Assembly (NCBI GenBank): GCA_965222155.1
Contig: CBDCTH010000012.1
Span: forward strand, 2,208,001 to 2,272,000
From: Gammaproteobacteria bacterium
GTDB taxonomy: Bacteria; Pseudomonadota; Gammaproteobacteria; Eutrophobiales; Eutrophobiaceae
Length of the DNA: 64,000 nucleotides
Direction of reading: 5' to 3'
The position numbers and the translations under genes are program-made. Shown piece by piece: positions 31,207 through 51,687 of the stretch. The notes below the pieces were generated by a model. That model was given only the letters and a program-made list of their open reading frames with translations, made no database searches and was not told where the DNA came from. How positions within the stretch are numbered: the first letter of the stretch is position 1; every line of letters starts with the position of its first letter.

Positions 31207-32898
<1,692 letters not shown>

Positions 32899-33022
32899 TC
32901 ACATGCAGGCACCTGGATATAAGTGATGCATGGACAACAGTGTTGTAACTCGTACATAGGCTGGAGCGGTATACTAACACACAACCGCATCCGGTGAAAT
33001 GCCTGCCAATGAGGCCGCCGCA

Positions 33023-33205
33023 TTAATGCGGCGGAATTCCGATAAGGACAGGGCCGAAAGCGTCTGTGGCCCTTTGAAATTTGTCCTCTCCGCTAAAATG
33101 CCTGTTCAAAACCACCGGTGTTACACTGGCCCAGACACGTGACGGCTTGGTCCATGTGTACGGGATAAGATTTTTCGGCGGACGTTCACGCGTTTCCAGT
33201 TCCAA
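33023..33205 (-). pseudogene. csb2: Internal fragment of type I-G (I-U) Csb2 (Cas5-Cas6 fusion)
   Basis: ELETRERPPKNLIPYTWTKPSRVWASVTPVVLNRHF matches the Csb2 W..PS..WASVTP.VL.RH motif, as recalled from memory. Confidence 0.7.
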
Positions 33206-33224
33206 TATGTATTTTTCTTGTTCG

Positions 33225-33333
33225 CGCCGCCACCTACCTTATCATGCTGTGCGCCCTGTTCTTCCTGGGCGGCGGCAGGTACGTCAGCCCGGATTACTGG
33301 ATCAGGCGCCGATACAATCCCGGCGGGCCGTAG
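33225..33333 (+). pseudogene. 3' remnant of a DoxX-family membrane protein
   Basis: Hand translation AATYLIMLCALFFLGGGRYVSPDYWIRRR..* fits the DoxX GGG.YS.D tail. Confidence 0.6.
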
Positions 33334-33402
33334 GAACACCTCAACCACAAAACGGTCATTTATCTCCTGCGCCCTTCCGGCAGCGTCGGGAGGGTGGGAT
33401 TT

Positions 33403-33441
33403 ATTTGAGTATTTTAAAGTTGTAGTTTAAAATACTCAAAT
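33403..33441. promoter_or_regulatory. Perfect 16-bp inverted repeat overlapping the ATPase start codon
   Basis: ATTTGAGTATTTTAAA-N7-TTTAAAATACTCAAAT. Confidence 0.7.
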
Positions 33442-34597
33442 GTCTTATATCCCTCGAACAGCAGCGACACAGCTCCGTAAAGCTGCAAGAAACTTTCCTG
33501 CCGTCTTGTTGACGGGGCCTCGACAATGCGGGAAAACCACCTTGCTGAAGCATGTTTTTCCGAAGGCAAACTATATCCTGCTCGAAGACCCGGATGTAAT
33601 AGCCCGGGTTAACAGCGACCCTCGGGGATTTCTTGATGAATTGAAGACTCCGGTAATCCTGGATGAGATACAGAATACGCCGACATTATTGGGATACGTC
33701 CGGACGCGTATCGATACTGCTCCCGGCCGCAAGGGGCAATGGCTGCTAACCGGATCACAGGAGGCGCCGCTGATGCAGGGCGTATCCGAATCCATGGCCG
33801 GACGGGTAGCGGTATTGCAACTGTTTCCCCTGTCCATACTGGAAACCGACAAAGTCAGCGTATTGTATGGCGGTTACCCTGACATCGTCAAAAGGCCCTC
33901 CGTGGCGGACCTTTGGTTTCGATCGTACATACAGACTTACCTGGAGCGTGACGTGCGCGCCATCACGGCGATCAAAGACCTGAGCACGTTCAGGCGTTTC
34001 ATGGCGCTGTTGGCCTCCCGCCACGGCAGCATATTGAACAAGACAGATCTGGCTGCCCCGTTAGGCGTTTCAGTGCCCACAATTTCCTCATGGTTGAATA
34101 TACTCGAAATGACAGGACAGATAATCGTTGTCCCGCCATTTTACGAAAATTTCGGTAAGCGCCTGGTTAAATCACCCAAACTGTATTTCACCGATTCCGG
34201 CCTGGTTTGCCATTTGCTGGGTATCGACACTCTTACAACACTGCGCAAATCACCGTTTTACGGCATTTTGTTTGAAGGATTCGTCGCCGCGGAAGTTATC
34301 AAACACCAGGTCAACAGCGGCAAACGGAAAGAACTGTATTACTTTCGTGACCAGCAGGGACTGGAGGTTGATTTTGTCATACCACAAGGAGCGGGCGTCC
34401 TGTTACTCGTGGAAGCAAAGGTGACCAAAACACCGACTCCATCCATGGCTCAACCCCTGAGCCGCCTGTCCAGGGTGATTAACAGGTATCAAACCCGATC
34501 CATGTTAGTGCATAGCGGTTCAGAAATGACTGTGGGAAGTGTTGTAGCGCCTGGCGTATCGGCCGTTAGCCTGGCTTGTTTGTTGGGAGTTGTTTAG
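33440..34597 (+). CDS. AAA_14 + DUF4143 ATP-binding protein
   Basis: GPRQCGKT, LDEIQ, TGS, GGYP, KSPKLYFTDSGL and EVDFV..EAK. Confidence 0.9.
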   Translation: MSYIPRTAATQLRKAARNFPAVLLTGPRQCGKTTLLKHVFPKANYILLEDPDVIARVNSDPRGFLDELKTPVILDEIQNTPTLLGYVRTRIDTAPGRKGQWLLTGSQEAPLMQGVSESMAGRVAVLQLFPLSILETDKVSVLYGGYPDIVKRPSVADLWFRSYIQTYLERDVRAITAIKDLSTFRRFMALLASRHGSILNKTDLAAPLGVSVPTISSWLNILEMTGQIIVVPPFYENFGKRLVKSPKLYFTDSGLVCHLLGIDTLTTLRKSPFYGILFEGFVAAEVIKHQVNSGKRKELYYFRDQQGLEVDFVIPQGAGVLLLVEAKVTKTPTPSMAQPLSRLSRVINRYQTRSMLVHSGSEMTVGSVVAPGVSAVSLACLLGVV

Positions 34598-34847
34598 AGT
34601 TATTGTCTCCATCTCCCAGAAAATACCTGAAATGGATGGAAAGCTGGTGGATAACTGAGTCTGAGAGACATGGAAATCCTGCCTGCGACGCCTCGCTGAA
34701 GTTGATACCAGTGTGGCAAAGTATATTGATCGAGGTGAATTTCGGGAACGCGTTATGGTAGGGACGATAACCGTTAGTGTGCCAGAGGCTGATACTTGAT
34801 AAAGCTGTAGAGGAATAGTGGAAACAACAGAAATATAACAAAACAAA

Positions 34848-37289
34848 ATGGCTGCTGAATATATTGCACACGTTCGATCTTCAGATGGGAAGATTCAGAC
34901 ATTGGAAAACCACCTGTTTGAGGTTTCAGACATAGCTTCAAAACTTACAGAAAAAGTGGGCTGCCGAGAAGCAGGTGCCCTATTGGGCCTCATGCACGAC
35001 TTTGGGAAATATAGTTCTGAATTTCAAAATTATATCAAGTCAGCAACAGGCGAGATAAATCCTGATGAAGACGATTACATCGATGCAAAAGGAATGAAAG
35101 GCAAGATAGATCATTCCAGTGCCGGTGCACAGTGGATATGGCATGAGTTAAAAGATGAACGTTTAGGAGGAGCATCACTTTGCGCACAGATTCTGGCGCT
35201 ATGTGTTGCATCACATCATAGCGGCCTCATTGATTGCTTAAAGCCGGAAGGTGGTAATAGTTTTATTACTCGAATGAACAAGAAAGATGAAAAAACGCAT
35301 CTGAGAGAGTGCAAAGCCAAGGCACCAACAGGAATTCTAAAGAGAGCCAAATTACTAACAAGCGAAACTCTGTTAAGAGATATGTGTCAGCACCTACGAC
35401 AATTTACGTGCAATAATCAACACGGGCAAAAAATCTCGGAAAAAATAAAATATTTTTATATTGGATTCTGGACGCGCTTTCTGTTCTCCTGCCTGATCGA
35501 TGCCGATCGAATCAACAGTGCCGATTTTGAAACTCCGAAAAACAAACAATATCGTGATAATTCCAAAGTTAACTGGCAAGTAGCTATAAATCGAACAGAG
35601 ATTTTTTTAACTGATTTGCCTGTTAGAAACCCAATTGACATAATTCGGCGCGATATTTCAGAAAAATGTAAGAAAAGAGCAATTGAGCAACAGGGCATTT
35701 ACACCATAACCGTGCCAACAGGCGGTGGCAAAACGTTTACCAGTCTGCGTTTCGCTTTGCATCATGCCAAAACACACCAACTGGACCGTATCATCTATGT
35801 TATTCCCTATACATCGATCATTGATCAGAATGCGATTGAGATAAGAAGAATCTTAGAATGTGAAGATGATCCCAAACCATGGATACTTGAACATCATTCC
35901 AATCTGGAACCGGAACAACAAACCTGGCACAGCAAGCTGGTAGCGGAAAATTGGGATGCCCCCATCATACTAACGACTATGGTACAGTTTTTGGAAACAC
36001 TGTTTGGAGCAGGCACGCGCGGCGTGCGTCGAATGCACCAATTGACAAATAGCATCATCATCTTCGATGAAATCCAGACGTTACCAATAAAATGCACTCA
36101 TCTGTTTTGCAATGCTCTAAATTTTTTAACAGCTTACCTTAAAACGACGGCAGTGTTGTGTACTGCAACGCAGCCACTGCTTAATAAACTAAAATCTCCT
36201 GAAAAAGGAGAATTATTTTTACCAAAAGATGCAGAGCTAGTTGGTGATGCTGAAAGTGTTGAAGCACTGTTTGAGGAATTAAAGCGAGTAACTGTTTGTA
36301 ATAAAATACGGGCTGGAGGCTGGACTGAAAATGAGGTGGCAGAGTTGGCAGTATCAGAATTCCAAAAAGTGGGGAGTTGCCTGATTGTTGTCAATACTAA
36401 AGCATGGGCACAAACACTGTATGGAATCTGTTCGTCTACAGTAGATAAAGATAGCCTGTTTCACCTCAGCACTAATCAATGCCCTGCCCACCGGAGAACA
36501 ATACTAAAACAAGTTCGTGACAAGCTGGATGACAATGAGCCAGTTCTTTGTATCAGTACACAACTGGTTGAAGCAGGTGTGGATATAGATTTTGGTAGTG
36601 TCATCCGTACCTTGGCTGGACTTGATTCGATTGCACAAGCGGCTGGGCGCTGTAATCGTAATGGTAGAAAGGAGAAAGGTGTAGTCTATGTAGTTAATCC
36701 GAAAAAGGAATCTATCGATTTATTAAAAGATATTAAAGAGGGGCGCAATAAAGCACAGCGTGTATTAGATGAGGTCGATAGCGATGACCTACTCAGTCCA
36801 AAGGCGATGAATCAATATTTTAATTATTATTTTTTCGAGCGCGCCGATGAGATGAGTTATCCGGTTACCGAAAAATATGCGACTCGCACCGACACCTTGC
36901 TTAACTTGTTAAGCGATAACAAAATAAATGTCACTAAACATAATAATTCATTACTCCGACAGTCCTTTATGACGGCAGGCAAGGCATTCAAAGCTATTGA
37001 AGCGCCTACTGAAACATTGATTGTGCCTTATGAGAAGGGAAAAGAAACCATCACCAACCTTTGTGCAGTAGCTAAAGAATTTGATCCTGGGAAATACTAC
37101 GATCTAATAAGAGAGGCTCAAAAGTACAGTGTCAACTTATTTCCCAATGTGCGACAAAAGCTGGCTAAAGCAGGCGCAATATACGAAATTCAAAGTGAAG
37201 GTATCTACTATTTAGATGAACGTTTCTATAGTGATGAGTTTGGTATTTCTACCGAGATGGTAAAGCAGTTAGAGCCTATGATATGTTAA
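34848..37289 (+). CDS. cas3: Cas3 HD nuclease-helicase
   Basis: HL..HDFGK, DAD, PTGGGKT, DEIQ, STQLVEAGVD and QAAGRCNR. Confidence 0.96.
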   Translation: MAAEYIAHVRSSDGKIQTLENHLFEVSDIASKLTEKVGCREAGALLGLMHDFGKYSSEFQNYIKSATGEINPDEDDYIDAKGMKGKIDHSSAGAQWIWHELKDERLGGASLCAQILALCVASHHSGLIDCLKPEGGNSFITRMNKKDEKTHLRECKAKAPTGILKRAKLLTSETLLRDMCQHLRQFTCNNQHGQKISEKIKYFYIGFWTRFLFSCLIDADRINSADFETPKNKQYRDNSKVNWQVAINRTEIFLTDLPVRNPIDIIRRDISEKCKKRAIEQQGIYTITVPTGGGKTFTSLRFALHHAKTHQLDRIIYVIPYTSIIDQNAIEIRRILECEDDPKPWILEHHSNLEPEQQTWHSKLVAENWDAPIILTTMVQFLETLFGAGTRGVRRMHQLTNSIIIFDEIQTLPIKCTHLFCNALNFLTAYLKTTAVLCTATQPLLNKLKSPEKGELFLPKDAELVGDAESVEALFEELKRVTVCNKIRAGGWTENEVAELAVSEFQKVGSCLIVVNTKAWAQTLYGICSSTVDKDSLFHLSTNQCPAHRRTILKQVRDKLDDNEPVLCISTQLVEAGVDIDFGSVIRTLAGLDSIAQAAGRCNRNGRKEKGVVYVVNPKKESIDLLKDIKEGRNKAQRVLDEVDSDDLLSPKAMNQYFNYYFFERADEMSYPVTEKYATRTDTLLNLLSDNKINVTKHNNSLLRQSFMTAGKAFKAIEAPTETLIVPYEKGKETITNLCAVAKEFDPGKYYDLIREAQKYSVNLFPNVRQKLAKAGAIYEIQSEGIYYLDERFYSDEFGISTEMVKQLEPMIC

Positions 37290-37295
37290 ACAGCC

Positions 37296-38006
37296 ATGAA
37301 TGCAAAAAATACAATTGAATTCAAACTGACGGGTAAATACGCACTTTTTACCGATCCTATTACAAAAATTGGTGGAGAGAAATTTTCATATCATGTGCCA
37401 ACTTATGAAGCAATCAAAGGGGTGCTGAAGTCGATTTACTGGAAACCAACATTTATATGGTACGTGGACGAAGTGCGAGTTATGAAGCCCCTAAGAACTC
37501 AGGCAAAAGGTATGAAACCAATGAAATACCACAGAGCTGGTAATGAACTATCAATTTATACCTATCTGCATGACGTGGAATATCAGGTGAAAGCGCATTT
37601 TGAGTGGAATGAGTATCGTCCGGAGTTGGAACAAGACCGCAATGACGGCAAACACTTCAATATTGCTAAACGTATGCTTGAAAAAGGCGGGAGACAGGAT
37701 ATTTTTTTGGGAGTCAGAGATTGTCAGGGATATGTTGAACCTTGCATATTTGAAGAAGAGAAAGGCTCTTACGATGATATCGAGGAACTCGGATTTGGTA
37801 TGATGTTTCATAGTTTTGGTTATCCAGATGAAACAGGCAAGAATGAGTTGGTAAAGCGCCTATGGAACGCCGTAATGAAGAAGGGTGTAATTGAATATCC
37901 GCGTCCCGAGGAATGTAAGACAGTTTTTGTCCGTCAAATGACTGCCAAACAGTTTGGTTTAGGGAAAAATGTGATAGCTGTGGGGGAAGAGGAAACACGG
38001 TTATGA
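37296..38006 (+). CDS. cas5: Type I-C Cas5 (Cas5d)
   Basis: ALFTDP..SYHVPTYEAIKG..IYWKP and FLGVRDC. Confidence 0.95.
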   Translation: MNAKNTIEFKLTGKYALFTDPITKIGGEKFSYHVPTYEAIKGVLKSIYWKPTFIWYVDEVRVMKPLRTQAKGMKPMKYHRAGNELSIYTYLHDVEYQVKAHFEWNEYRPELEQDRNDGKHFNIAKRMLEKGGRQDIFLGVRDCQGYVEPCIFEEEKGSYDDIEELGFGMMFHSFGYPDETGKNELVKRLWNAVMKKGVIEYPRPEECKTVFVRQMTAKQFGLGKNVIAVGEEETRL

Positions 38007-39970
38007 GTTGGCTTGCGAAACTCCACGAAACGTATGAAAACGGCGCGGCCTTGGACCTACCTATTAGTGATCAAATAATGCCCATCAGCCATACTCCGCA
38101 AAATGCCCATATCAATATTGTTATTGATATTGATGGAAAGTTCCAAAGAGCCGCAGTTTTGCAAAACACTCAAATAATATTACCTGCTACTGAAAGTTCC
38201 GCCGGGCGTAGCAGTGGCGAAACACCACATCCATTAGCAGATAAACTCCAATACGTTGCTAAAGACTATGCTGACTATGGAGGCAAGAAAAATTCGTATT
38301 TTGATAGTTATATAAAACAGCTTAAAAAATGGTGTGAATCAGATTTTTCACATCGACATGTTACTGCTGTATATCATTATGTTAAGAAAGGTACCGTGAT
38401 AAAGGATTTGATTGATTTTTCAATATGCCATATTTCTTCGGACGATATTTTACTGACCAAATGGGAAGATGAAAGTATTGAACCACCTGCGCTATTCAGA
38501 TCATTGCCCAAAGAAAAGGGAGAACTGGACCAGGGTAATGCGATGGTATGCTGGACAGTTGAAGTCAGCAGTGATCCGGACTCGAATACTTGGCAAAACA
38601 AATCCTTACAGGAAAAATGGATCAAATATAATGCTTCGATAGGAGGTATTGAAGGGCTTTGCTATGTGAGTGGAACTCAGAAAGTACTAATAACAAATCA
38701 CCCGGCTAAGCTCAGACATACAGGTGACAAGGCAAAGCTGATTTCTGCTAACGATATGGGCGGTTTTACCTTTCGAGGTCGGTTTACGGATTCCAAAAAA
38801 ACAGTGGAACAAACTGGCTATCAGTCTGTTGGTGTAGGATCAGATGTAAGCCAAAAAGCTCACAATGCTTTGCGTTGGCTCTTATCCCGTCAAGGATTTC
38901 GAAACGGAGATCAAGCTATCGTATCTTGGGCTGTTTCCGGTAAGGAAATTCCGCAACCTGTCCAAGATACCTGGTCAATGTTGGGCAAAGAACTGTCAGA
39001 AAATGCTGAATCTGGCACTATCCAACAACACGACGAAATTGACCATACTATAGATGTCGGTGAGTCTTTCGCTCACTCTCTGAACAAATATATGGCGGGG
39101 TATCGAGCGAAGCTGGCACCTGATGAAAGTATTGTCATTATGGCACTGGACGCCGCAACGCCGGGACGAATGGGTATTACCTATTATCGTGAAACCTTTG
39201 CATCTGAATTCATTGATGTGGTAAAACGGTGGCATGAAAATTTGGCTTGGTTCCAAAGATATATCCCTAATGGCAAAAAGAAGCCTAAAATCAAGATTGT
39301 CTGGCCACTCAGTGCACCGTCTCCCGAAATAATATGGGAGGCTGTTTATGGTAAAACGCTAACTGATAGTTTAAAGAAAAACCTTATCGAACGAATTCTT
39401 CCCTGCATTGTCGAGGGTAGACCGATACCTTTCGACATTGTTAATTCCTGTATTCAGCGGGCAAGCAACCCTAATGGTTTGGAGCATTGGGAATGGGAAC
39501 AATGCTTGGGTGTCGCTTGCTCATTATTCAAGGGTTACTATCGTCGTCATCCAGACCCAAACAAACGGAGAGATTATTTTATGGCTTTAGACGAAAAAAA
39601 TACCTCACGCGATTATTTATATGGTCGTCTATTAGCAGTTGCAGAGCGCATCGAATACATAGCGTTACAAGTGGCTAATGAGAAGCGATCCACTACTGCT
39701 GAACGGATGATGCAGCACTTTGCTGACAGGCCTTGCAGCAGTTGGCGGAATATTGAATTGGCCCTGCAGCCTTATATACAACGATTGAAAAATTCACGAG
39801 AAGGATTTTTAGTTAATCGTCAAAAAGAACTTGATGCCATTATGAGTTCTTTTGAGAGCAATGAATTTACTTCCGAGAACCCCCTGAGTGGAGAGTTTTT
39901 ATTGGGTTTTCATTGCCAGAGACTTTCTTTGTGGCAAAAAACTGAACCAACAACTGACCAAGATGAATGA
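38003..39970 (+). CDS. cas8c: Type I-C Cas8c (Csd1)
   Basis: MSWLAKL, HPLADKLQY, DAATPGR, YLYGRLLAVAE and FLLGFHCQ. Confidence 0.95.
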   Translation: MSWLAKLHETYENGAALDLPISDQIMPISHTPQNAHINIVIDIDGKFQRAAVLQNTQIILPATESSAGRSSGETPHPLADKLQYVAKDYADYGGKKNSYFDSYIKQLKKWCESDFSHRHVTAVYHYVKKGTVIKDLIDFSICHISSDDILLTKWEDESIEPPALFRSLPKEKGELDQGNAMVCWTVEVSSDPDSNTWQNKSLQEKWIKYNASIGGIEGLCYVSGTQKVLITNHPAKLRHTGDKAKLISANDMGGFTFRGRFTDSKKTVEQTGYQSVGVGSDVSQKAHNALRWLLSRQGFRNGDQAIVSWAVSGKEIPQPVQDTWSMLGKELSENAESGTIQQHDEIDHTIDVGESFAHSLNKYMAGYRAKLAPDESIVIMALDAATPGRMGITYYRETFASEFIDVVKRWHENLAWFQRYIPNGKKKPKIKIVWPLSAPSPEIIWEAVYGKTLTDSLKKNLIERILPCIVEGRPIPFDIVNSCIQRASNPNGLEHWEWEQCLGVACSLFKGYYRRHPDPNKRRDYFMALDEKNTSRDYLYGRLLAVAERIEYIALQVANEKRSTTAERMMQHFADRPCSSWRNIELALQPYIQRLKNSREGFLVNRQKELDAIMSSFESNEFTSENPLSGEFLLGFHCQRLSLWQKTEPTTDQDE

Positions 39971-39984
39971 CTAAGGAGAAATAT

Positions 39985-40842
39985 ATGAGCTTGGAAAACA
40001 AAATCGACTTTGCAATTATTTTTAGTGTACGAAACGCAAATCCAAATGGAGACCCCTTGAATGGAAATCGCCCACGCGTAGATTATGATGGTTTTGGTGA
40101 AATTACTGACGTATGCCTGAAAAGAAAAATTCGCGATCGTCTGCAATCTGAAGGACATTCTATTTTCGTGCAGTCTGATGAGAAGAAAACCGATGGTATG
40201 ACCAGTCTAAAAAATCGAGCCGAACATCAAGAACATGGTTTAGGTAAAGACGCGTTTAATAGCAAAGAGACTCCTATAGAAGAGACTGCTAAATCGGCTT
40301 GTAAAAAATGGTTTGATGTGCGGACATTTGGACAGTTATTTGCGTTTAAAAGCGATAGAAAAGATGGCGTGTCAATCCCAATTCGTGGGCCGGTTAGTAT
40401 TCAGTCAGCTTTTAGTTTGTCTCCAGTTAGTATCACCAGTACACAAATTACTAAGAGCGTTAGCGGAGAAGGCGATGGTGAGAAGAAAAGCTCTGACACA
40501 ATGGGTATGAAACATCGTGTCGATAGAGCAGTTTATGTCACTTACGGCGCCATGACTCCGCAGTTGGCTGATCGTACAGGATTTAATAATGAAGATGCAG
40601 AAACAATAAAGGCAGTGCTCCCAAAACTGTTCGAAGGAGACGCATCTTCCGCAAGACCCGAGGGCAGTATGTCTATAGATAAAGTAATCTGGTGGCAACA
40701 TAGCTCAAAATCAGGTCAGTATTCCTCATTCAAAGTACACGGGTCACTTAGGGATATTATCCAATCTAATGGGAGCTTTGATAAGGATAAATTAGAGAGA
40801 TCACTGGAAGGATTGGAGACTGAAATCATTGACGGTTTTTAA
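39985..40842 (+). CDS. cas7: Type I-C Cas7 (Csd2)
   Basis: ANPNGDP, TDVCLKRKIRD, DVRTFG, TMGMKH and SSARP. Confidence 0.95.
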   Translation: MSLENKIDFAIIFSVRNANPNGDPLNGNRPRVDYDGFGEITDVCLKRKIRDRLQSEGHSIFVQSDEKKTDGMTSLKNRAEHQEHGLGKDAFNSKETPIEETAKSACKKWFDVRTFGQLFAFKSDRKDGVSIPIRGPVSIQSAFSLSPVSITSTQITKSVSGEGDGEKKSSDTMGMKHRVDRAVYVTYGAMTPQLADRTGFNNEDAETIKAVLPKLFEGDASSARPEGSMSIDKVIWWQHSSKSGQYSSFKVHGSLRDIIQSNGSFDKDKLERSLEGLETEIIDGF

Positions 40843-40917
40843 ACCTTTGATGATGCAACTATTCGTAACGTCGGGTATACACGAGGTAGCCACTTTTTAT
40901 ATTCATCAAAGATAAAT

Positions 40918-41181
40918 ATGAGCATCGCCAGTTTTCGACTACAACCGAACATAGAATATCTTTTGAAAAAACTATCCAAAAAATTGGACAGCAGTAAAAA
41001 TTACCTGATCAATCAGACAGTAAAGGAATATGTCGAACGCCAAGCGATGGAGGATATACACTGGGCCGATACTCTGCTGTCTCTGAAGTCTGTACAGACA
41101 GGCAAGACAGTACCGGACGATCAGGTAATCTCATGGCTGAAAAGTTGGGGAACAGATAAAGAATTACCAAAACCTGAATAG
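40918..41181 (+). CDS. Ribbon-helix-helix (CopG-like) antitoxin
   Basis: N-terminal SFRL strand plus helices, and a WLKSWGTDKELPKP tail typical of RelE/ParE partners. Confidence 0.8.
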   Translation: MSIASFRLQPNIEYLLKKLSKKLDSSKNYLINQTVKEYVERQAMEDIHWADTLLSLKSVQTGKTVPDDQVISWLKSWGTDKELPKPE

Positions 41182-41474
41182 TGGATATTGAGTTTACGCC
41201 GGAGGCCTTAGACGACTTGGAACGACTCCGACAATTTTTAGTGGGTGCTGGCGCGCCCTAAGCTGAAGAGATGGCATCCGACATCATACGGAGTTTACAG
41301 AATTTACGATTATTTCCCCGCGTGAGGCTACCTGTGCGACGAGCGCCTGATCCTGATGTCGTACGTGACTGGTATATTGGCCGGTATTGTGTACGCTATC
41401 TTATTGGCAGCGATGCCATTTATATTCTGAGAATATGGCACGGCAAGGAAGATGAACGAAACCGTTTACCCTGA
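41181..41474 (+). pseudogene. RelE/ParE-family toxin with an in-frame stop
   Basis: GTG overlaps the antitoxin TAG. The frame reads DIEFTPEALDDLERLRQFL, hits TAA at 41259-41261, then continues ..YCVRYL..IYILRIWHGKE. Confidence 0.82.
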
Positions 41475-41488
41475 TACTTACCGTGTGA

Positions 41489-42121
41489 ATGATAAAATAC
41501 ATGGACAATCCAATCCCCATCTCCGCCTTACAGCATTACGCATTTTGTCCACGCCAATGCGCGTATATTCATATTGAACAACTTTGGCGGGATAATTTTC
41601 TGACTGCCAAAGGCAACCAACTCCATGAGCGTGTACACAGCAACAAAACAGAACAGCGCGGCCGTTTGAGAACGGAACGAGGAGTGCAGGTTTATTCAGC
41701 ACAATACGGTCTTACAGGAAAACTGGATTTACTTGAAATCAAGTCAGATTCCAGGCAACTAACCCCTATTGAATATAAACGCGGCAAACCTAAAACGGAT
41801 GATTGCGACCGCATTCAATTGTGTGCCCAAGTATTATGTTTGGAAGAGATGCGGGACGTCGTTATTCATCGCTCTGCGTTATGGTACTGGCAGGTACGCA
41901 AACGCGAATGGGTCAACATTGATAAACCGTTACGTGACCTGACCATCGACATTATTCATGCTACGCGTAAACTGTTGCAGGATGGGTCAATCCCGCCAGC
42001 GGTTTATTCGCCCTCATGCAAAGCATGTTCTTTCTTTGATGATATCTGCCACCCGCGTAAAACTGATCAATCCAAACGTTATGTAAGAGACATATTTGAG
42101 GATGAAGAAGTTACTCAATAA
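41489..42121 (+). CDS. cas4: Cas4
   Basis: ISALQHYAFCPRQ, IEYKRG, QLCAQ and C-terminal CKAC..C. Confidence 0.95.
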   Translation: MIKYMDNPIPISALQHYAFCPRQCAYIHIEQLWRDNFLTAKGNQLHERVHSNKTEQRGRLRTERGVQVYSAQYGLTGKLDLLEIKSDSRQLTPIEYKRGKPKTDDCDRIQLCAQVLCLEEMRDVVIHRSALWYWQVRKREWVNIDKPLRDLTIDIIHATRKLLQDGSIPPAVYSPSCKACSFFDDICHPRKTDQSKRYVRDIFEDEEVTQ

Positions 42122-43121
42122 TTTATACATAACTACCAATGGCAGTTATGTACACAAAGAACGGGAAACTCTCGCTATCAAGCAGGGAGGCAAAAAAGTT
42201 TTTCAACTACCTTTTCATACCATTCAAAATTTATTTTGCTTCGGCCATATCATGGTGTCACCGGATTTGTTAGCCGCCTGTGGCGAGAAAGGAATCAACG
42301 TTTCGTTTTTCTCTGAGTACGGAAAATTTCAATCACGAATACAGGGTCCGCAATCGGGAAATGTATTATTACGTAGGGCACAGTATCGTAAAGCAGATGA
42401 CTCGCCTCAGGTCCTGGCGCAACTCTTTGTTGCAGCCAAGCTTTCCAACTGTCGCACTATGGTTATGCGACATCAACGCAATCATGGTAAAAATGAGGAG
42501 CTTGAACGATTAGCAAAGCACTTGGGCAATAACCTCAAACGGCTGCAACAATGCCATGATATCGACCGAATGCGTGGAATTGAGGGAGATTCCGCCGCGT
42601 CTTATTTCGGATGTTTCAACCACTTGATTGTTGACGACCTGAAAGCGTCCTTTCCTTTTTCGGGAAGGACAAAAAGACCGCCTCTCGACCGTGTAAATGC
42701 CTTGCTCTCATTTGCCTATACCCTGTTAACCCATGAGATTGCTTCGGCCTTACAAGGTGTGGGGATCGATCCTTATGTGGGCTTTTTGCATACAGACCGG
42801 CCTGGCAGGTTGAGCCTGGCTCTGGATATGCTCGAAGAATTCCGTGCCTGGTGGTGCGATCGTTTTGTTTTGACACTGATTAACCGGAAACAGATTTCTC
42901 CGAATGACTTTATTGAAGAAGGCAGCGGTGCCATTCGTTTGAAGGATGATGCTCGAAAGAAATTCCTCGCCGCTTGGCAAGATAGAAAACAGGATGAACT
43001 GCAACATCCTTATACGGAGGAAAAGATTTATACCGGGCTGCTACCTCACGTTCAGGCTATGTTGCTTTCACGTTATTTACGCAAAGATATGGAAATCTAT
43101 ACCCCATTCATCTCGCGTTGA
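42102..43121 (+). CDS. cas1: Type I-C Cas1
   Basis: GNVLLRRAQY, RGIEG, GFLHTDRPGRLSLALDMLEEFR. Confidence 0.97.
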   Translation: MKKLLNNLYITTNGSYVHKERETLAIKQGGKKVFQLPFHTIQNLFCFGHIMVSPDLLAACGEKGINVSFFSEYGKFQSRIQGPQSGNVLLRRAQYRKADDSPQVLAQLFVAAKLSNCRTMVMRHQRNHGKNEELERLAKHLGNNLKRLQQCHDIDRMRGIEGDSAASYFGCFNHLIVDDLKASFPFSGRTKRPPLDRVNALLSFAYTLLTHEIASALQGVGIDPYVGFLHTDRPGRLSLALDMLEEFRAWWCDRFVLTLINRKQISPNDFIEEGSGAIRLKDDARKKFLAAWQDRKQDELQHPYTEEKIYTGLLPHVQAMLLSRYLRKDMEIYTPFISR

Positions 43122-43129
43122 GGTAGGTA

Positions 43130-43423
43130 ATGCTTGTATTAATCACCTATGACGTGAACCTGACTACTGAACAAGGTGCAAAAAGGCTGAGACAAATCAG
43201 CAAAACCTGTCTGGACTTTGGATTACGGGTGCAATATTCCGTTTTTGAATGTGAAATCACACCAGCACAGTGGGTAGAGTTAAAGGAAGCATTACTGAAC
43301 ATATATGACCCCGATAATGACAGCTTGCGCTTTTATCACTTGGGTTCCAAGTGGAAACGCAAGGTGGAACATTATGGTGCAAAAGGAACGCCGGATCTAC
43401 TAAGGGATACCTTGATCGTGTAA
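43130..43423 (+). CDS. cas2: Cas2
   Basis: LVLITYDV, RVQYSVFEC and DSLRFY. Confidence 0.97.
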   Translation: MLVLITYDVNLTTEQGAKRLRQISKTCLDFGLRVQYSVFECEITPAQWVELKEALLNIYDPDNDSLRFYHLGSKWKRKVEHYGAKGTPDLLRDTLIV

Positions 43424-43601
43424 CGCCGCTAACCACAGGTTCTCATTATAATCAGGCAGGGTTAGCGTTGGCTTAAGTTTTTGATTTTTCAAGTTTTAGT
43501 TTACTATGAATCGGTAAATTCGGCTCTTTAACAATCTGGATAAGTAGTTCAGCGCATATTCCAAGCTTAATTGTTTTTATTCAATAAGTTAGAATATGGG
43601 A
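43424..43601 (+). promoter_or_regulatory. CRISPR leader
   Basis: AT-rich stretch between cas2 and repeat 1, with a CGCTAACC..GGTTAGCG inverted motif. Confidence 0.8.
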
Positions 43602-45455
43602 GTCGCGCCCCTTCGGGGGCGCGTGGATTGAAACAAATTCATCCATCGACATCTGACTCGATGATTCCCGTCGCGCCCCTTCGGGGGCGCGTGGATTGAA
43701 ACTGACTTATAGCGGCTTTTGACCTTTTCCAGGTCGGTCGCGCCCCTTCGGGGGCGCGTGGATTGAAACTCTACTGTCTTCTCAAACTGCTCCTTGAACA
43801 ACCGTCGCGCCCCTTCGGGGGCGCGTGGATTGAAACAGCCATTTTCTGCTGCTTTTCTTTTTGCTTCTTCGTCGCGCCCCTTCGGGGGCGCGTGGATTGA
43901 AACTTCTTCTATCACGAATTTGCCGTAGTAAGTCATTGTCGCGCCCCTTCGGGGGCGCGTGGATTGAAACTCAATGTGTTGTGGGTTGTATTCCGGTGAT
44001 TGCAGTCGCGCCCCTTCGGGGGCGCGTGGATTGAAACAGTACATTAGCCCAAATATCAAAGGGGACACAATCGTCGCGCCCCTTCGGGGGCGCGTGGATT
44101 GAAACCAGGGACTAGACCAACAGATGAAAGAAGGACTGAGTCGCGCCCCTTCGGGGGCGCGTGGATTGAAACTTCAGTTTCACGTCTTCCGGCATTATCA
44201 TCAGTATTTGTCGCGCCCCTTCGGGGGCGCGTGGATTGAAACAGCACATTAACGGTGCGCGATGACGCGGTCAAAAAGTCGCGCCCCTTCGGGGGCGCGT
44301 GGATTGAAACAGCACACCCCAAACCCAAAGATTTGGCGTGGCCTGTCGCGCCCCTTCGGGGGCGCGTGGATTGAAACCCATCGATTTGCTGTGTCTTGAT
44401 AGTAAGGTTTTGTCGCGCCCCTTCGGGGGCGCGTGGATTGAAACCGTATATTGCTCCTATTTTCCTTAGTCCTTCTTTGTCGCGCCCCTTCGGGGGCGCG
44501 TGGATTGAAACCCCAGGATCCCTGAAGTACCGATTCCAGATACGCAGTCGCGCCCCTTCGGGGGCGCGTGGATTGAAACTTCGCTGATAATAAATGATGA
44601 GTAGTGTGTCATTGTCGCGCCCCTTCGGGGGCGCGTGGATTGAAACCTACGTCTTGTAGTTGTTCTTTCAGTTTTGATAGGTCGCGCCCCTTCGGGGGCG
44701 CGTGGATTGAAACAGCACATTGACGGTAAGAAACGACGCGGTGAAAAGTCGCGCCCCTTCGGGGGCGCGTGGATTGAAACGTTTATGTCGGGCTTTTTGT
44801 TGTCAGGGGTTGACGTCGCGCCCCTTCGGGGGCGCGTGGATTGAAACGCTCACCATCGGGCGGCTGGGCCGTGGCGCTCAAGTCGCGCCCCTTCGGGGGC
44901 GCGTGGATTGAAACCATCGTGGCGTGGTGGACAAACAACCTACTGAGGGTCGCGCCCCTTCGGGGGCGCGTGGATTGAAACGCTCACCATCGGGCGGCTG
45001 GGCCGGGGCGCTCAAGGTCGCGCCCCTTCGGGGGCGCGTGGATTGAAACATGCCCATGACACCAACCAAAGAAGTAATCGATGGTCGCGCCCCTTCGGGG
45101 GCGCGTGGATTGAAACCTAGACCTATTCAAGTAACAAACATAAGCAAACTAGTCGCGCCCCTTCGGGGGCGCGTGGATTGAAACAAACACGCTTGAAAGG
45201 ACGAGCATTTGCCAGAATTGTCGCGCCCCTTCGGGGGCGCGTGGATTGAAACATTGCAGGATTTATGGATGTTTAAAATACCTGAACGTCGCGCCCCTTC
45301 GGGGGCGCGTGGATTGAAACGTTTTCTTGCAAGTAAACTCCACTACTTCTATGTTGTCGCGCCCCTTCGGGGGCGCGTGGATTGAAACATCGTAGCCTTG
45401 TTTTATAAATTCGATCCAGGTCGTCGCGCCCCTTCGGGGGCGCGTGGATTGAAAC
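43602..45455 (+). CRISPR. Type I-C array: 28 identical 33-bp repeats and 27 spacers of 34-37 bp
   Basis: Repeat GTCGCGCCCCTTCGGGGGCGCGTGGATTGAAAC, counted by hand. Confidence 0.99.
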
Positions 45456-45588
45456 TGTTGATTTTGGAAATATCATTAGTTATACTGCGTATTTCACTGA
45501 ATCCTGCCACCCGTTTCACGTGAAGGCTGCCACCCGGAACGCAGCAAAGCTGCCACCCCCAGGCGCGTGATGACGTGGGTGTTGGTCA

Positions 45589-46347
45589 TTATGACTCTGT
45601 TGGGGTCATCGTCGTCAATGTTTTTTTCTGTTTTCGCATGGATTCACCCTTGAGTTGTATTTTGTAAGCATTGTGCACCAGGCGGTCAAGGATGGCATCG
45701 GCGAGGGTGGGGTCGCCGATGCTGTGATGCCATTTTTCGGCCGGTAATTGACTGGTAGCGAGGGTGGAGCGTGCGCCGTGGCGGTCTTCCAGGATTTCCA
45801 GCAGGTCACGGCGCTGCTCTGCGTTCAATTTGACCAGGCCCCAGTCATCGAGGATGAGGGCCTGGGTTTTTGCCAGGGTGGTGAGGAGCTTGGGATAGCG
45901 TCCATCGCCCTTGGCGATGGACAGGTCCTGGAGGAGTCTGGGCAGGCGCAGGTAGAGGGCGGTGTAGCCGTGCCGGCAGGCGTTGTGTGCCAGGGCACAG
46001 GCGAGCCAGGTTTTGCCGACGCCGGTGGGGCCGGTGATGAGGATATTGAGGTGTTCGCGGACCCACTGGCAGGTGGCCAGTGATTGCATCAGGGATTTAT
46101 CCAGTCCGCGCGGGGGGCGATAGTCGATATCCTCCAGGGTGGCATTGTGTTTGAGGCGGGCGCGTCGCAGCCGGTTGGACAGGCGTCGGTTGTCCCGTTC
46201 GGTTATCTCCCGGTCGACGAGCAGGCCGAGGCGTTCCTCGAAGCTGAGGGTATCGATATCGGGCACGGACATCTGCTCGGTGAGGGCGGCAGCCATACCG
46301 GTGCATTTCAAGGTCTGGAGTTTGTCCAGGGTGGGATGTATCAACAT
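45589..46347 (-). CDS. istB: IS21 helper ATPase
   Basis: GPTGVGKT, LILDDWG and DPTLADAILDRLVHNA. Confidence 0.95.
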   Translation of the reverse strand: MLIHPTLDKLQTLKCTGMAAALTEQMSVPDIDTLSFEERLGLLVDREITERDNRRLSNRLRRARLKHNATLEDIDYRPPRGLDKSLMQSLATCQWVREHLNILITGPTGVGKTWLACALAHNACRHGYTALYLRLPRLLQDLSIAKGDGRYPKLLTTLAKTQALILDDWGLVKLNAEQRRDLLEILEDRHGARSTLATSQLPAEKWHHSIGDPTLADAILDRLVHNAYKIQLKGESMRKQKKTLTTMTPTES

Positions 46348-46366
46348 AGCAGTCTCCTGTCGTGGG

Positions 46367-47908
46367 TCAGTGGTAGTAGGATGGGCCACGGATATTGTCG
46401 TGGTCATCAGGTAAGGCCGCCTCGGTCTGCTCGGCGAGGGGTTGCCGGTCCAGGCCGTGGCGGAGGATGGATTCGATACTTTTGTAACTGTGGCTGCCCA
46501 GGGTGAGGGCGCGTTGGCAGGCGGCCTCCAGCCGGTCGTCGCCGTAGGTTTTAGCCAGGCGCAGGATCCCTAAGCAACTGCGGTAGGCCTGCTGGGGGTG
46601 CTTGCGGGCAGACAGGACACGGAGGATAAGGGTTTCTGTGGCCGGCCCGACCGGCGCGGCCCAGCGGCCCAGGCGTTGCGGGGACCACTCGCCGGCCTGG
46701 CGGTGCGCCTCGGGCATGTGGGCCGGGACGGTGGTATGACGTGCCTTATGATACGAGCGTCGATGGCTGGCGATGCGCTGGCCGCGATGAAAGCATTCAA
46801 TGGTGTTGGCGGTGATGCGCACGTCCAGTTGTTTTTTGATGAGCGCGTGGGGCACGGAGTAGTAATGGCCATGGACCTCGATGTGATAGTCGATATGGAC
46901 CCGCGCCTGCTTCCACTCGGCGTATTCGTACGCTTCGACGGGCAGGGGCCGCAGGGCCGGTTTATCCAGTTGCTCAAACAGCGCGCGCCGGGTGCCCGGC
47001 AGTTTCTTGAAGGGCCGGTTGTTGAGCGTCTCCAGCAACGCCCGGATGGCGCGGTTCAACTCGGCCAGGGAGAAGCACTGACGCTGGCGCAGGGCGGCGA
47101 GGATCCAGCGCTCTACCACCTGTACCGCGACCTCGGCTTTCGCTTTGTCACGGGGACGACGCACCCGTGCCGGGACAATGGCGACCCCGTAATGGGTGGC
47201 CAGGTCCTGGCAGGTGGGGTTGATGTCCGGCTCATAGCGATGCGCCTTGCTGACCCCGGCGCGTAAATTATCCGGCACCACCACTTCAGGCACACCGCCC
47301 AGGTAGGTAAAACAGCGCACGTGGGCGCCGATCCAATCTTCCAGGCCCTGGCTCCAGGTGGCCTCGGCATAGGTGTAGTTCGACGCGCCCAGCGCTGCCA
47401 CAAACACCTCTGCCTCACGGACTTCCCCGGTTGCCGGGTTGATGACCTGAGCACGCATACCGGCATAATCCACGAACAGCTTCTCACCGGCCCGGTGCTC
47501 CTGGCGCATGACCAGATCCAGCTTGCCACGCCACGTCCGATAATGCTGGCAGAACCAGGTGTACTGATAGCCTTGCGGGTGAGTCTGGCGATACTCATGC
47601 CATAACAACTGCAAGGTGACGCCCGGGCGTTTCAACTCCCGATGAATGTGTGACCAATCGGGCACGCCGCGGGCCGCGGCGGGTACAGCTGGGGCGGGCG
47701 GAAACAGCAGACGCTCCAGCGCCCCGTCATCCAGCGCCGCAGGCAGCGGCCAACCCAGCCCGGCCGCCTCGGCCCGGCGCAGGTACTCATCCACCGCCGG
47801 ACGGGAAATGCCACAACTCCTGGCTGTCTGGCGTTTGCTCAGGCCCTGGCTCCAGCACAGGCGTAATACGTCTTTTATCTTTCTCATGGACAACCTCTTT
47901 GCAGGCAT
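46367..47908 (-). CDS. istA: IS21 transposase
   Basis: FVDYAG, VPDNL, PRDKAKAE and HDNIRGPSYYH. Confidence 0.96.
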   Translation of the reverse strand: MPAKRLSMRKIKDVLRLCWSQGLSKRQTARSCGISRPAVDEYLRRAEAAGLGWPLPAALDDGALERLLFPPAPAVPAAARGVPDWSHIHRELKRPGVTLQLLWHEYRQTHPQGYQYTWFCQHYRTWRGKLDLVMRQEHRAGEKLFVDYAGMRAQVINPATGEVREAEVFVAALGASNYTYAEATWSQGLEDWIGAHVRCFTYLGGVPEVVVPDNLRAGVSKAHRYEPDINPTCQDLATHYGVAIVPARVRRPRDKAKAEVAVQVVERWILAALRQRQCFSLAELNRAIRALLETLNNRPFKKLPGTRRALFEQLDKPALRPLPVEAYEYAEWKQARVHIDYHIEVHGHYYSVPHALIKKQLDVRITANTIECFHRGQRIASHRRSYHKARHTTVPAHMPEAHRQAGEWSPQRLGRWAAPVGPATETLILRVLSARKHPQQAYRSCLGILRLAKTYGDDRLEAACQRALTLGSHSYKSIESILRHGLDRQPLAEQTEAALPDDHDNIRGPSYYH

Positions 47909-48044
47909 CTGTGTCTCCTCCTTTCAGTAGAAATAAGGACACAGGATACCCTTGGTTATCCACGTCAAACGCGCCGGTTATCTACCTCCTTGGGGGTGGC
48001 AGCTTTGCCGTGTAATGGGTGGCAGCTTTGCTGTGAAATACGCA

Positions 48045-48088
48045 CCACGAGGGCAGGATGTCCTCGGTCCCGGGAGTTAGCGGGAACT
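48045..48088 (+). repeat. 5'-truncated family A repeat abutting IS21
   Basis: CCACGAGGGCAGGATGTCCTCGGTCCCGGGAGTTAGCGGGAACTG matches the 3' half of 23146-23251. Confidence 0.8.
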
Positions 48089-48174
48089 GCTGATAAAACG
48101 CCACTATTTTCCCGGTGGATCGTTGAGGTAACTCAAACACCATTTATACAGACATACCTGTTTCCGTCGGGTCG

Positions 48175-49467
48175 TTATATCAACCAATAGGGCCAATAGA
48201 GAATCCTGTTCCTTTTATCCCAGTAAGGTAGTCCACCATAAGCGACAATGCCGAAGGCAACGCCATGGCTCAGGATAAAATCGACAAGTAATGAGGTATC
48301 AACCTGGCTGCGGTCGATGCCGGCTTTGGCCTCCAGCGGGATCATCCGCTTGCCCGTGCTTATCACGAAATCAATTTCTCCGGCCCCGTATTTAACCTTT
48401 TTATTGGCGTCTATGGTGAATGGCTTGTAGTAGTTGATTTGGGTTTTCAAGGCTTTTAACTGCAAAATCTGCCTGAGTCTGTTGTGCAGATATCCCTCCA
48501 CACGAAAGCCTCTTTCCGTATCACTTTCCAGCAGCCCCTCACCGGTTAAATAAGTGACAATGCCCGGGTCGATATAGGAAAAATTGTTGAGGTAGGAGCG
48601 ACGCTCTTCACCGATTAGAAGCGGTTTCTTTTTAAGCAGGTAACCCTGGTTGATAAGGGCGTCAATGACCTTGTTGATTTGGTCTCGTCTTCTTAAGCCG
48701 GTTCTTTGGAAAACTCCCTGGTAGGCAAATTCCTTGGAGTCCAGCCTGGCCAATTCCAGTTTAATCGTATCCGTAGTGGTTTCATTATTGACAGACATAA
48801 GTTCAAAACCACGCTCAACGATTTTACGTATTTCCACCAGTCCGGCGTCATTATCCTGCGCAAGGTAGACCAGGGGGAAACCACCATAGCACAGGTAGTC
48901 GGCTATGATCCGCTTGATGCCTTCATTAAGATCCAGGGGTATTTCCACGTCTCGCCCGTTTTGCCAATTGAACAACACATCTCGGAATTGCCGAACCCAT
49001 TCCGGTTCCACCATGTTTTCATGACAGAGGATTTCTCCGAGAGAGAAAGGCGCCAGGTTCCAGAGATCGGCCCGGCGTTGCAACCTCTTTTTGGCCTCCG
49101 TTTGCAGAAAAGCAGGGTTGGAACCGGAAATGATGAAGGACGCGCCGGTATGATCGAAGGCATATTTTACTGCATCGAAAATGAGTTCTGATTTTTGCAC
49201 TTCATCGATGAAAATGAGGGCGGGCCAAGTGGTCTGCGCGCTGACCTGCTCGTGCAGGTAGCGGGTATTCCAGGCTACGGCTTGGCGGAATTGCACGTCG
49301 TCCCCAGTATAGGAAAAGATCCGAAAGTCGTTTTCCAGCTTTTTCAGGACATGTTTAATGAGCGTCGTCTTGCCGGAACCGACTGTTCCGGCCAATATAA
49401 GCCCGGAGGGAGAATCCGGATTGAAAAAACGCAACAAATTCCCTTGTAATTCACGAGTTATGTACAT
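48175..49467 (-). CDS. Divergent AAA_14 + DUF4143 ATP-binding protein
   Basis: GTVGSGKT, IDEVQK, SGS, YGGFP, DPGI and EIDFVI..PLEAK. Confidence 0.85.
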   Translation of the reverse strand: MYITRELQGNLLRFFNPDSPSGLILAGTVGSGKTTLIKHVLKKLENDFRIFSYTGDDVQFRQAVAWNTRYLHEQVSAQTTWPALIFIDEVQKSELIFDAVKYAFDHTGASFIISGSNPAFLQTEAKKRLQRRADLWNLAPFSLGEILCHENMVEPEWVRQFRDVLFNWQNGRDVEIPLDLNEGIKRIIADYLCYGGFPLVYLAQDNDAGLVEIRKIVERGFELMSVNNETTTDTIKLELARLDSKEFAYQGVFQRTGLRRRDQINKVIDALINQGYLLKKKPLLIGEERRSYLNNFSYIDPGIVTYLTGEGLLESDTERGFRVEGYLHNRLRQILQLKALKTQINYYKPFTIDANKKVKYGAGEIDFVISTGKRMIPLEAKAGIDRSQVDTSLLVDFILSHGVAFGIVAYGGLPYWDKRNRILYWPYWLI

Positions 49468-49472
49468 GATAA

Positions 49473-49534
49473 GAGATTTTACTGAATTTTTTGAAAAATC
49501 TCCAGAGATTTTACCCCATGTTTCGTAGAATCTC
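49473..49534. promoter_or_regulatory. Two tandem 30-bp imperfect palindromes upstream of the ATPase
   Basis: GAGATTTTAC..AAAATCTC (49473-49502) and GAGATTTTAC..GTAGAATCTC (49505-49534). Confidence 0.6.
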
Positions 49535-49579
49535 CGAGGGTTCGTCCTGGTGATTTATGGTGTGATTATTCGTGGGTAA

Positions 49580-49608
49580 GTGTTCCCCACCCGTGTGGGG
49601 ATGAACCG
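49580..49608 (+). CRISPR. Solitary type I-E CRISPR repeat
   Basis: GTGTTCCCCACCCGTGTGGGGATGAACCG, 29 bp, with canonical I-E ends and hairpin. No second copy was seen. Confidence 0.8.
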
Positions 49609-51530: not shown

Positions 51531-51571
51531 TAATGGCTTCATCCTTGATCGGGCAGGCAATGTAACAGGGG

Positions 51572-51687
51572 AATCAATGGGGTCAGACTCGATTGATTTT
51601 TCTGCCTGCGAAAGTTTACCCCTGTATGCTGTTGAGCAGGGGCAAGAATCTAATGAGCTAAATTAATCGAGTCTGACCCCATTGATT
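51572..51687. repeat. MITE with a 28-bp inverted repeat (GGGGTCAGA family)
   Basis: AATCAATGGGGTCAGACTCGATT ... AATCGAGTCTGACCCCATTGATT. Confidence 0.85.

Follow-up and report, generated by a model that had tools for sequence, protein, structure and literature searches.

The interval between pyrG and tag

We examined a 64,000-nucleotide (nt) stretch of a Gammaproteobacteria bacterium of the Eutrophobiaceae (assembly GCA_965222155.1, contig CBDCTH010000012.1; G000:C12:2208001-2272000), hereafter called the window, with regard to the interval between the core genes pyrG and tag. This interval bears a complete type I-C CRISPR-Cas system, a short type I-G scar beside pyrG and one solitary type I-E repeat near tag. 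Having compared it with 22 other genomes of the genus (23 in all), we consider it probable that the interval is a defence hotspot, in which these traces record gain, coexistence, module exchange and decay by deletion in an old and fast-changing island. A preliminary description, made from the letters of the window, had reported a Csb2-like fragment, an I-C core and an I-E repeat here, with a DUF4143 ATPase on each side of the core. All three elements are present and both ATPases were recognized by Pfam. A doxX remnant (33226-33333) and an IS21 copy (45486-48044), which were absent from that description, also lie between the parts, and the I-G repeat beside the csb2 fragment is likewise new.

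The genes eno, kdsA and pyrG, all on the minus strand, precede the interval on the left. Its features are given below, in window coordinates unless a contig is named; G numbers denote genomes of the comparison, and C12 is the contig that contains the window.

31207..32835, minus strand: pyrG (CTP synthase), the left core flank; Pfam CTP_synth_N, E-value = 4.4e-126; 98% amino acid (aa) identity to G019
32836..33006, no strand: conserved pyrG upstream region; homology with G020, G001 and G018 extends as far as 33005-33007
33007..33038, minus strand: solitary type I-G repeat, first 32 of 37 nt; 32/32 to the repeats at C12:3363890, 3363962 and 3364035
33039..33062, minus strand: 24 nt between the I-G repeat and csb2; best DNA match in the I-G locus 15/24, equalled at three other places
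33063..33209, minus strand: csb2 piece B (residues ~654-702); 144/147 to C12:3356658-3356804
33208..33226, minus strand: csb2 piece A (residues ~481-486); 19/19 to C12:3356140-3356158, 36/39 in a wider alignment, which reflects the direct-repeat homology
33226..33333, plus strand: doxX 3' remnant (last ~35 codons and stop); 80% over 35 aa to G018 DoxX residues 177-211
33403..33440, no strand: palindrome and promoter-like site upstream of ATPase1; also found upstream of the G018 ATPase
33440..34597, plus strand: ATPase1, AAA_14 and DUF4143 (DUF4143 E-value = 1.9e-46; PADLOC PDC-S01 E-value = 5.8e-103)
34848..43423, plus strand: type I-C cas operon with cas3, cas5c, cas8c, cas7c, relB-like, parE (interrupted), cas4, cas1 and cas2
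43602..45485, plus strand: I-C array of 28 identical 33-nt repeats, 27 spacers and a 30-nt spacer stump; exact repeats at 43602-45455
45486..48044, minus strand: IS21-family insertion sequence (IS) with istA and istB, 2559 bp; Pfam IstB (E-value = 6.8e-78), rve and Mu-transposase C
48175..49467, minus strand: ATPase2, AAA_14 (E-value = 4.6e-20) and weak DUF4143 (E-value = 1.6e-7); PADLOC PDC-S01 E-value = 3e-19
49472..49535, no strand: two 32-nt palindromic units upstream of ATPase2, kept with the gene in G007, G014 and G008
49580..49608, plus strand: solitary type I-E repeat, complete at 29 nt; exact 29-mer, single copy in the genome
49657..51530, plus strand: coiled-coil protein (165 aa, 33-nt tandem units) and AAA_16 ATPase (405 aa), by profile matches
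51663..52319, minus strand: tag (3-methyladenine glycosylase), the right core flank; Pfam Adenine_glyco, E-value = 6.8e-81; also located in relatives

The non-coding stretch between pyrG and ATPase1 measures 605 bp. Together with its array, the complete I-C system spans 34848-45455, and the G+C content of its cas operon is 40-46% versus about 56% in the flanks. The cas3, cas5c, cas8c (Csd1), cas7c, cas4, cas1 and cas2 genes gave Pfam E-values from 1.8e-16 to 3.7e-127. Specifically, the effector proteins carry Cas3 domains, Cas_Cas5d (E-value = 3.8e-42), Cas_Csd1 (E-value = 3.7e-127) and Cas_Cas7 (E-value = 1.2e-72), while adaptation is represented by Cas4 (E-value = 3.6e-27), Cas1 (E-value = 5.1e-104) and Cas2 (E-value = 1.2e-25) with an adjacent array, whose spacers are 34-37 nt long. 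With seven cas genes and 28 repeats, the system at the site is apparently intact, as had been proposed. Its last spacer is cut at 30 nt by the IS21 element (stump and element together at 45456-48044), a copy at which no target-site duplication was found. The IS21 family looks active, because at least nine further full copies with at least 98.7% identity lie elsewhere in the genome. An IS21 event would have cut the far end of the array, and deletion or recombination beside the element may have removed the I-E mini-arrays that G007 keeps between its I-C array and ATPase2.

The I-C operon also houses genes for a RelB-like antitoxin and a ParE toxin, in the gap between cas7c and cas4 (40918-41474). 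The ParE frame has an in-frame stop after about 27 codons, leaving a 67-aa open reading frame (ORF); G018 has an equivalent pair in the equivalent place, with ParE at its full 97 aa.

The same site in related genomes

The content of the pyrG-tag site varies strongly among the relatives, as can be observed directly:

G015, G022 and G002: pyrG and tag 133-202 nt apart, empty
G001 and G020: intact doxX only
G013: doxX 5' remnant of 19 codons and about 1 kb of other DNA
G017: 1.7-kb interval, content untyped
G019, the closest relative (pyrG 98% aa identity): thiamine pyrophosphate-enzyme and glutamate-synthase-like genes, one I-C repeat (1 mismatch), no cas gene
G004 and G008: other cargo with ATPase1 or ATPase2
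G014: complete type II system (Cas9, type II Cas1, Cas2 and ~10 repeats) between pyrG and ATPase1; ATPase2 near tag
G016: I-C after ATPase1
G018: pyrG, doxX, a distant DUF4143 ATPase, IS, I-C operon, I-C array (~30 repeats, split by an IS), three I-E mini-arrays, unknown ORFs, HipA, tag
G007, tag contig: I-C cas1-cas2, 65 I-C repeats, I-E repeats at three places, ATPase2, palindromes, tag
G003, G005, G009, G010 and G012: pyrG and tag far apart
G006, G011 and G021: too fragmented to judge

Conserved flanks enclose a variable and defence-rich content, the site being empty in three genomes, occupied by doxX only in two, by I-C in three and by type II in one. The preliminary description had looked to the cas types of the pyrG-tag interval in relatives for support, and both I-C (G018, G016, G007) and type II (G014) are indeed found there. 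Its further expectation, that relatives carry I-G or I-E at this site, holds only in part: I-E is represented by orphan arrays in G018 and G007, I-E cas genes occur at the site in no genome of the genus, and no I-G locus lies beside pyrG among the 22 relatives wherever contigs permit placement. For an I-G array abutting pyrG in G007 there is only a 10-nt match to the start of that genome's own I-G repeat, on the other strand, too weak to be taken as evidence; both contigs end there, the I-G contig inside its array. The end of the G007 pyrG contig (L013:1-85, C39 end) carries unrelated sequence beyond the conserved pyrG upstream block.

A locus of this kind is known. Core defence hotspots between conserved genes have been described, for example, in Pseudomonas aeruginosa (PMC10250203), and orphan arrays, remnant repeats and complex loci with shared adaptation modules by Bernheim et al. 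(NAR 2020, PMC7145637). Like the hotspots as outlined in the former report, pyrG and tag flank a species-variable content with CRISPR-Cas, PDC-S01 ATPases, toxin-antitoxin pairs and IS elements, and PDC-S01 ATPases recur at the site among the relatives. Unlike the hotspots of that outline, the cargo here is mostly CRISPR-Cas of several types, and the scars left by lost systems are legible down to single bases (PMC10250203).

The comparison separates the two halves of the I-C system. Window Cas3, Cas5, Cas8c and Cas7 share 76-88% identity with G016 versus only 23-33% with G018, whereas Cas4, Cas1 and Cas2 share 84-91% with G018, G016 and G007; RelB and ParE share 77-81% with G018, and pyrG and tag 75-98% over the same genomes. 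Judged from these values, the I-C effector module has been exchanged at least once. ATPase1 retains 85-87% identity in G016, G014 and G004, and ATPase2 87-91% in G007, G008 and G014. The adaptation genes and the ATPases are conserved like the flanks and thus behave as residents of the island. Both ATPases read as long-term residents rather than as cassette ends, because their identity across species (85-91%) is like that of the flanking core genes.

This bears on the proposal of the preliminary description that entire CRISPR systems succeeded each other at a single insertion point, I-G first and then I-E or I-C, possibly as a cassette with the two DUF4143 ATPases as its ends. The traces of three subtypes in one interval accord with it, as do the relatives with I-C, type II or nothing at the site and the different effector module of G018 over a kept adaptation module. 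However, the traces occupy three positions relative to the ATPases: the I-G scar and the G014 type II system lie in the gap between pyrG and ATPase1, I-C between the ATPases, and I-E repeats on either side of ATPase2, past it in the window and before it in G007. The ATPases, conserved as the core flanks are, also occupy the site in G004 and G008, which have no cas genes there, PADLOC lists them as defence candidates and not as mobility genes, and no integrase or att-like direct repeats were seen bounding the interval. Moreover, I-C and I-E arrays coexist in G018 and G007. The high variability of the interval and the turnover of CRISPR systems stand, but replacement was not one for one, since systems coexisted and decayed, and the ATPase-bounded cassette is not upheld. 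We regard serial replacement as rather improbable, and gain, decay and module exchange fit the site better.

The type I-G scar beside pyrG

In the scar (33007-33226, 218 bp), 24 unassigned nt separate the 32-nt start of an I-G repeat from two csb2 pieces; the pieces all lie on one strand, in the locus order csb2, repeat, pyrG. A full I-G locus lies 1.1 Mb away in the same chromosome, with csb1, csb2 (779 aa), cas3g in two frames, a Cas3-extension gene, cas4g/cas1g, cas2 and three 37-nt repeats. Its array follows cas4g/cas1g and cas2 (C12:3361655-3364071), csb1 and csb2 are intact, and the resident Csb2 scores 295 bits on TIGR02165.

Concerning the csb2 fragment, the minus-strand frame 33026-33238 matched TIGR02165 (Csb2, a Cas5-Cas6 fusion) over 48 residues with 26 bits (E-value = 4.9e-6), below the 45-bit cut-off for the whole protein. 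The other frames of the stretch gave no profile match, and Pfam PF09609 reached an E-value of only 0.065 on the fragment. A tblastn search with the full-length Csb2 of the genome returned 50/61 identical residues (E-value = 1e-28). The preliminary description had made its Csb2-like fragment depend on a hit to a Csb2 profile; that hit exists, albeit sub-threshold, and the 144/147 nt identity to the genome's own csb2 gives the stronger support. The adjoining repeat resembles those beside cas4g/cas1g-cas2 and its hairpin is intact, with the final 5 nt swapped for ancestral pyrG-upstream sequence. Rfam CRISPR-DR16 matched it with 31.2 bits (E-value = 8.9e-4), under the 35-bit gathering score. Coding sequence of Csb2 is present as a fragment only, and the 218 bp, with one truncated repeat, TTG as the sole start codon and no 5' part of csb2, do not make up a working I-G system.

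The csb2 genes of relatives are just 76-82% identical to the scar, which therefore belongs to the I-G lineage of this genome. A contig of 1507 nt from run X12 contains piece B with 0 differences inside a resident-type csb2, and by this comparison piece B matches a circulating csb2 allele. At the junction of pieces A and B, 501 nt of csb2 are missing in frame, between the copies of an imperfect direct repeat (17/20) inside the gene; such an exact loss at a direct repeat is typical of deletion inside a contiguous csb2 copy. The 24-nt piece reads in frame as GPVLIG, as do Csb2 codons 763-768, with four differences within those codons, all at third positions. The csb2 codons of relatives are no closer to it than those of the resident gene. 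On sequence grounds it may be the tail of a spacer or come from an older or diverged csb2 allele.

The ground on which the scar stands can be reconstructed from doxX, the ancestral neighbour of pyrG, which adjoins it in G001, G020, G018, G005 and G004 (DoxX Pfam matches in G018, G005 and G003). Ancestral homology halts at 33005-33007 and resumes at 33226, within the last 35 doxX codons, where the remnant shows 92-93% nt identity to G020 and G001. It is this remnant that stands between the scar and ATPase1 with the I-C system. The corresponding stretch measures 611 nt in G020 versus 218 in the window, so that the I-G pieces fill a deletion in which the spacer and about 176 doxX codons were lost. 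These identities and junctions are observed directly. From them we infer that a whole I-G locus formerly stood at the site, as well as the order of events: the scar would be the deletion residue of an I-G cas-plus-array stretch, of the lineage of the resident locus, that had replaced the pyrG-doxX spacer and the first ~176 codons of doxX.

It is possible, if unlikely, that the scar never was an I-G locus and that a deletion of the doxX 5' part was mended with filler copied from the genome's own I-G locus in short jumps (template switching). The patches are short (19, 147 and 32 nt), fill the deletion exactly and differ from the present csb2 allele at few positions or none, which would suit such a repair, as would the lack of I-G at the site in every relative. 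However, the 501-nt gap between pieces A and B lies in frame between 17/20 direct repeats, as expected of slippage within one gene copy, and the 24-nt piece has no source in the resident locus. No other such filler was seen, and none was looked for. The collinear order of the pieces fits decay and templated repair alike. In either case, the most unusual feature of the locus is this stitched I-G scar with a matching, live-looking copy in the same chromosome; it could be due to decay of a second I-G copy or to templated repair.

Several observations were made on the resident I-G locus itself. Its cas3g (G000:C12:3357030-3360126) comprises two overlapping ORFs, which cover positions 29-420 and 423-854 of the hidden Markov model (HMM), and is one frame in G018; the split is either a frameshift or a sequencing error. 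Csb2 of this clade (G000:C12:3354709-3357048) has an insert of ~240-300 residues between the halves of the TIGR02165 model, common to G018, G007 and G010, with 72-75% identity over the insert-bearing stretch. No Csx17/Cas8g gene was seen in the locus. A composite transposon around it was rejected, as the two 315-aa ORFs are unrelated (one PvdO-like, the other an IS5 transposase). Homology with the I-G loci of G018, G010, G016 and G007 was confined to the cas genes, with no common flanks within the stretches compared. Csb2 occurs in 8 of the 23 genus genomes, never beside pyrG wherever contigs permit placement. Apart from I-G, the other Cas1 loci of the genome are type III-associated and type II.

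The type I-E repeat and the fate of solitary repeats

The I-E 29-mer has one copy in the genome at up to 3 mismatches, and no second I-E repeat was found in the window at up to 6 mismatches; as no I-E cas gene was found in the genome either, neither a system nor an array of this type is recognized at the site. The loose I-E pattern occurs at least once in 30 of 100 shuffles, and is weak evidence by itself. The exact 29-mer, however, forms arrays in other records, and the L076 array directly follows cas3e, cas6e, cas7e, cas5e and cas1e, which bears out the earlier call of a canonical I-E repeat. Near-identical repeats also accompany I-E cas genes within the genus, far from pyrG: in G002, 40 repeats (3 mismatches to that of the window) belong to a complete I-E system, and G022 has cse1-cse2-cas7e-cas5e-cas6e with 3 repeats (1-3 mismatches). 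An Rfam scan of the repeat found no DR family and a lone chance match to a long non-coding RNA (E-value = 5).

Cas7e is present in only two of the 23 genomes (G002 and G022), at loci away from the site, and in neither G018 nor G007; the I-E arrays of the latter two are therefore orphan. The G018 mini-arrays comprise 7 repeats with a 61-nt period between the I-C array and tag. In G007, two of the I-E places have a repeat that differs by at most 1 base from the window repeat, each followed by a degenerate second repeat, on a homologous island and beside an ATPase2 that is 91% identical. Common descent of the window and G007 repeats is likely from this resemblance, and the window repeat (49580-49608) would then be the last repeat of orphan I-E arrays that persist in G018 and G007. 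These mini-arrays (G018, L038:4300-8900; G007, L053:7700-10200) have 2-3 repeats each and are interspersed with stretches of 1.1-1.9 kb, whose ORFs gave no Pfam or PADLOC match except one weak helix-turn-helix and one DUF2442. Upstream, both G007 copies are flanked by the same 26 nt. Between the window repeat and the arrays of G022, G002, G075, G064 and G026, homology was confined to the repeat. When metagenome contigs were scanned for exact copies of the I-G 32-mer and of the I-E 29-mer, nothing was returned, and the I-G 32-mer occurred in no other record of the genome collection; the scans therefore supplied no closer strain for comparison.

Solitary repeats can be functional elsewhere. Solitary repeat units give rise to CRISPR RNA (crRNA)-like regulators in I-C operons (preprint 10.1101/2024.12.27.630466), and phages encode RNA anti-CRISPRs (Racrs; PMC10651486). 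The window resembles these cases, as far as they are set out in those two sources, in having single CRISPR repeats alone beside defence genes. One or both repeats could accordingly be working units, acting as crRNA-like regulators on nearby promoters or as Racr-like RNA decoys directed at competing CRISPR systems. In favour of this, the coiled-coil/AAA_16 gene pair starts 49 nt after the I-E repeat, which is perfect, the I-G unit retains its hairpin, with csb1 and csb2 intact elsewhere in the genome, and units of this sort are on record for I-C operons and phages (10.1101/2024.12.27.630466, PMC10651486). Unlike the units of those reports, there is here no cognate I-E Cascade found, the I-G handle is truncated and no partial target lies nearby (10.1101/2024.12.27.630466, PMC10651486). 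Specifically, no I-E cas gene was found in the genome, the I-G repeat lacks its last 5 nt, which are part of the handle region, and the 13-nt would-be spacer seeds (up to 1 mismatch) have only scattered matches across the genome and, apart from themselves, none within the window. Neither repeat was found to have a promoter-like site directed into it, and the context is a chromosome and not a phage. Cognate effector, intact handle and a partial target with a PAM at a nearby promoter do not combine in either repeat, and we think such a role highly improbable. Present function is unlikely by these sequence features, and we infer its absence; the lone repeats look like scars and not like working units. 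Residues of this kind are usual at the site, as G019 keeps one I-C repeat with no cas genes there. Elsewhere, Escherichia coli strains without I-F cas genes retain a short I-F repeat remnant.

Very doubtful, too, is the idea that the lone I-G and I-E repeats are kept by selection, as RNA decoys or regulators that sequester the proteins binding the repeats of rival systems, resident I-G and incoming I-E, or that self-targeting by the I-C Cas3 erased a neighbouring I-G locus and left the scar. None of the 27 I-C spacers (0/27) matches the resident I-G locus or the I-G scar. If the decoy idea were true, the island would carry weapons for conflict between CRISPR systems.

According to the explanation that we favour, CRISPR-Cas loci and other defence genes would be gained in the pyrG-tag gap, where they coexist, swap modules and decay by deletion. 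The following points weigh against it. I-G lies beside pyrG in 0 of the 22 relatives, and the former system is deduced from 218 bp. To account for the scar, 5-6 separate deletion junctions are required, although piece B has only 3/147 differences from the resident gene (0 from the X12 contig); many deletions in little time, or gene conversion, must therefore be assumed. The 24 nt adjoining the I-G repeat match nothing clearly. Concerning I-E, the side of ATPase2 on which the repeats stand differs between the window and G007, and no flank homology was found. Searches of the genome for I-E cas families (PF09344, PF08798) gave no match and also missed an E. coli control, so their sensitivity is low; this is partly covered by tblastn with eight I-E proteins of G002, which gave 2 weak Cas3 helicase cross-matches only.

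An assembly chimera of the pyrG region and the I-G locus had also been named as a danger to the earlier account. The assembly has 12 contigs and an estimated contamination of 7.28%, and short-read unitigs of run X10 break at the repeated pieces, which might suggest such an artefact. Nevertheless, a contig of 2998 nt from run X9 spans 32300-34626 and bridges all scar junctions with 4 differences; this is evidence from an assembled contig, and it may come from the assembly's own study and so not be independent. Runs X12 and X13 cover parts of the stretch but were not counted as bridging, as none of the listed pieces extends 31 letters past a scar junction on each side. Additionally, the junctions are novel (the 501-nt internal csb2 deletion, the truncated repeat) and there are 3 base differences from the assembled resident copy, for which a simple mis-join is an unlikely source. 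We find a chimera hardly credible.

As with the orphan and remnant arrays of Bernheim et al., arrays or single repeats here outlast their cas genes, and more than one subtype shares a locus (PMC7145637). Unlike the remnants in the portion of that survey relevant here, the I-G remnant has stitched pieces of a cas gene, near-identical to a working-looking copy in the same chromosome (PMC7145637). The locus offers a base-level record of CRISPR-Cas turnover at one chromosomal hotspot: in one genus, a single gap holds I-C with either of two unrelated effector modules joined to a common adaptation module, as well as orphan I-E arrays, a type II system, lone-repeat scars and a stitched I-G remnant. 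This supports the view of CRISPR loci as modular, short-lived tenants of defence islands and provides a natural case for the study of CRISPR locus deletion; no new mechanism is indicated.

Some minor features of the interval can be added. The coiled-coil/AAA_16 cargo had no tblastn match at the site in the loci of relatives. The 165-aa coiled-coil gene contains seven tandem 33-nt units (49747-50076), that is, 11-residue repeats, and its only model matches are weak coiled-coil ones, to LeoA and ZorA. Short sequences in the stretch from the AAA_16 gene to tag (51514-51690) recur widely in this and related genomes, with 91-98% identity over 45-120 nt, and are probably a family of small repeated intergenic elements. 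Finally, I-C spacers 6, 8 and 13 (43971-44478) match the array beside the type III-associated locus (G000:C12:583134-583392) at 21-23 of 23-25 nt, and the two arrays may hold spacers against related targets.

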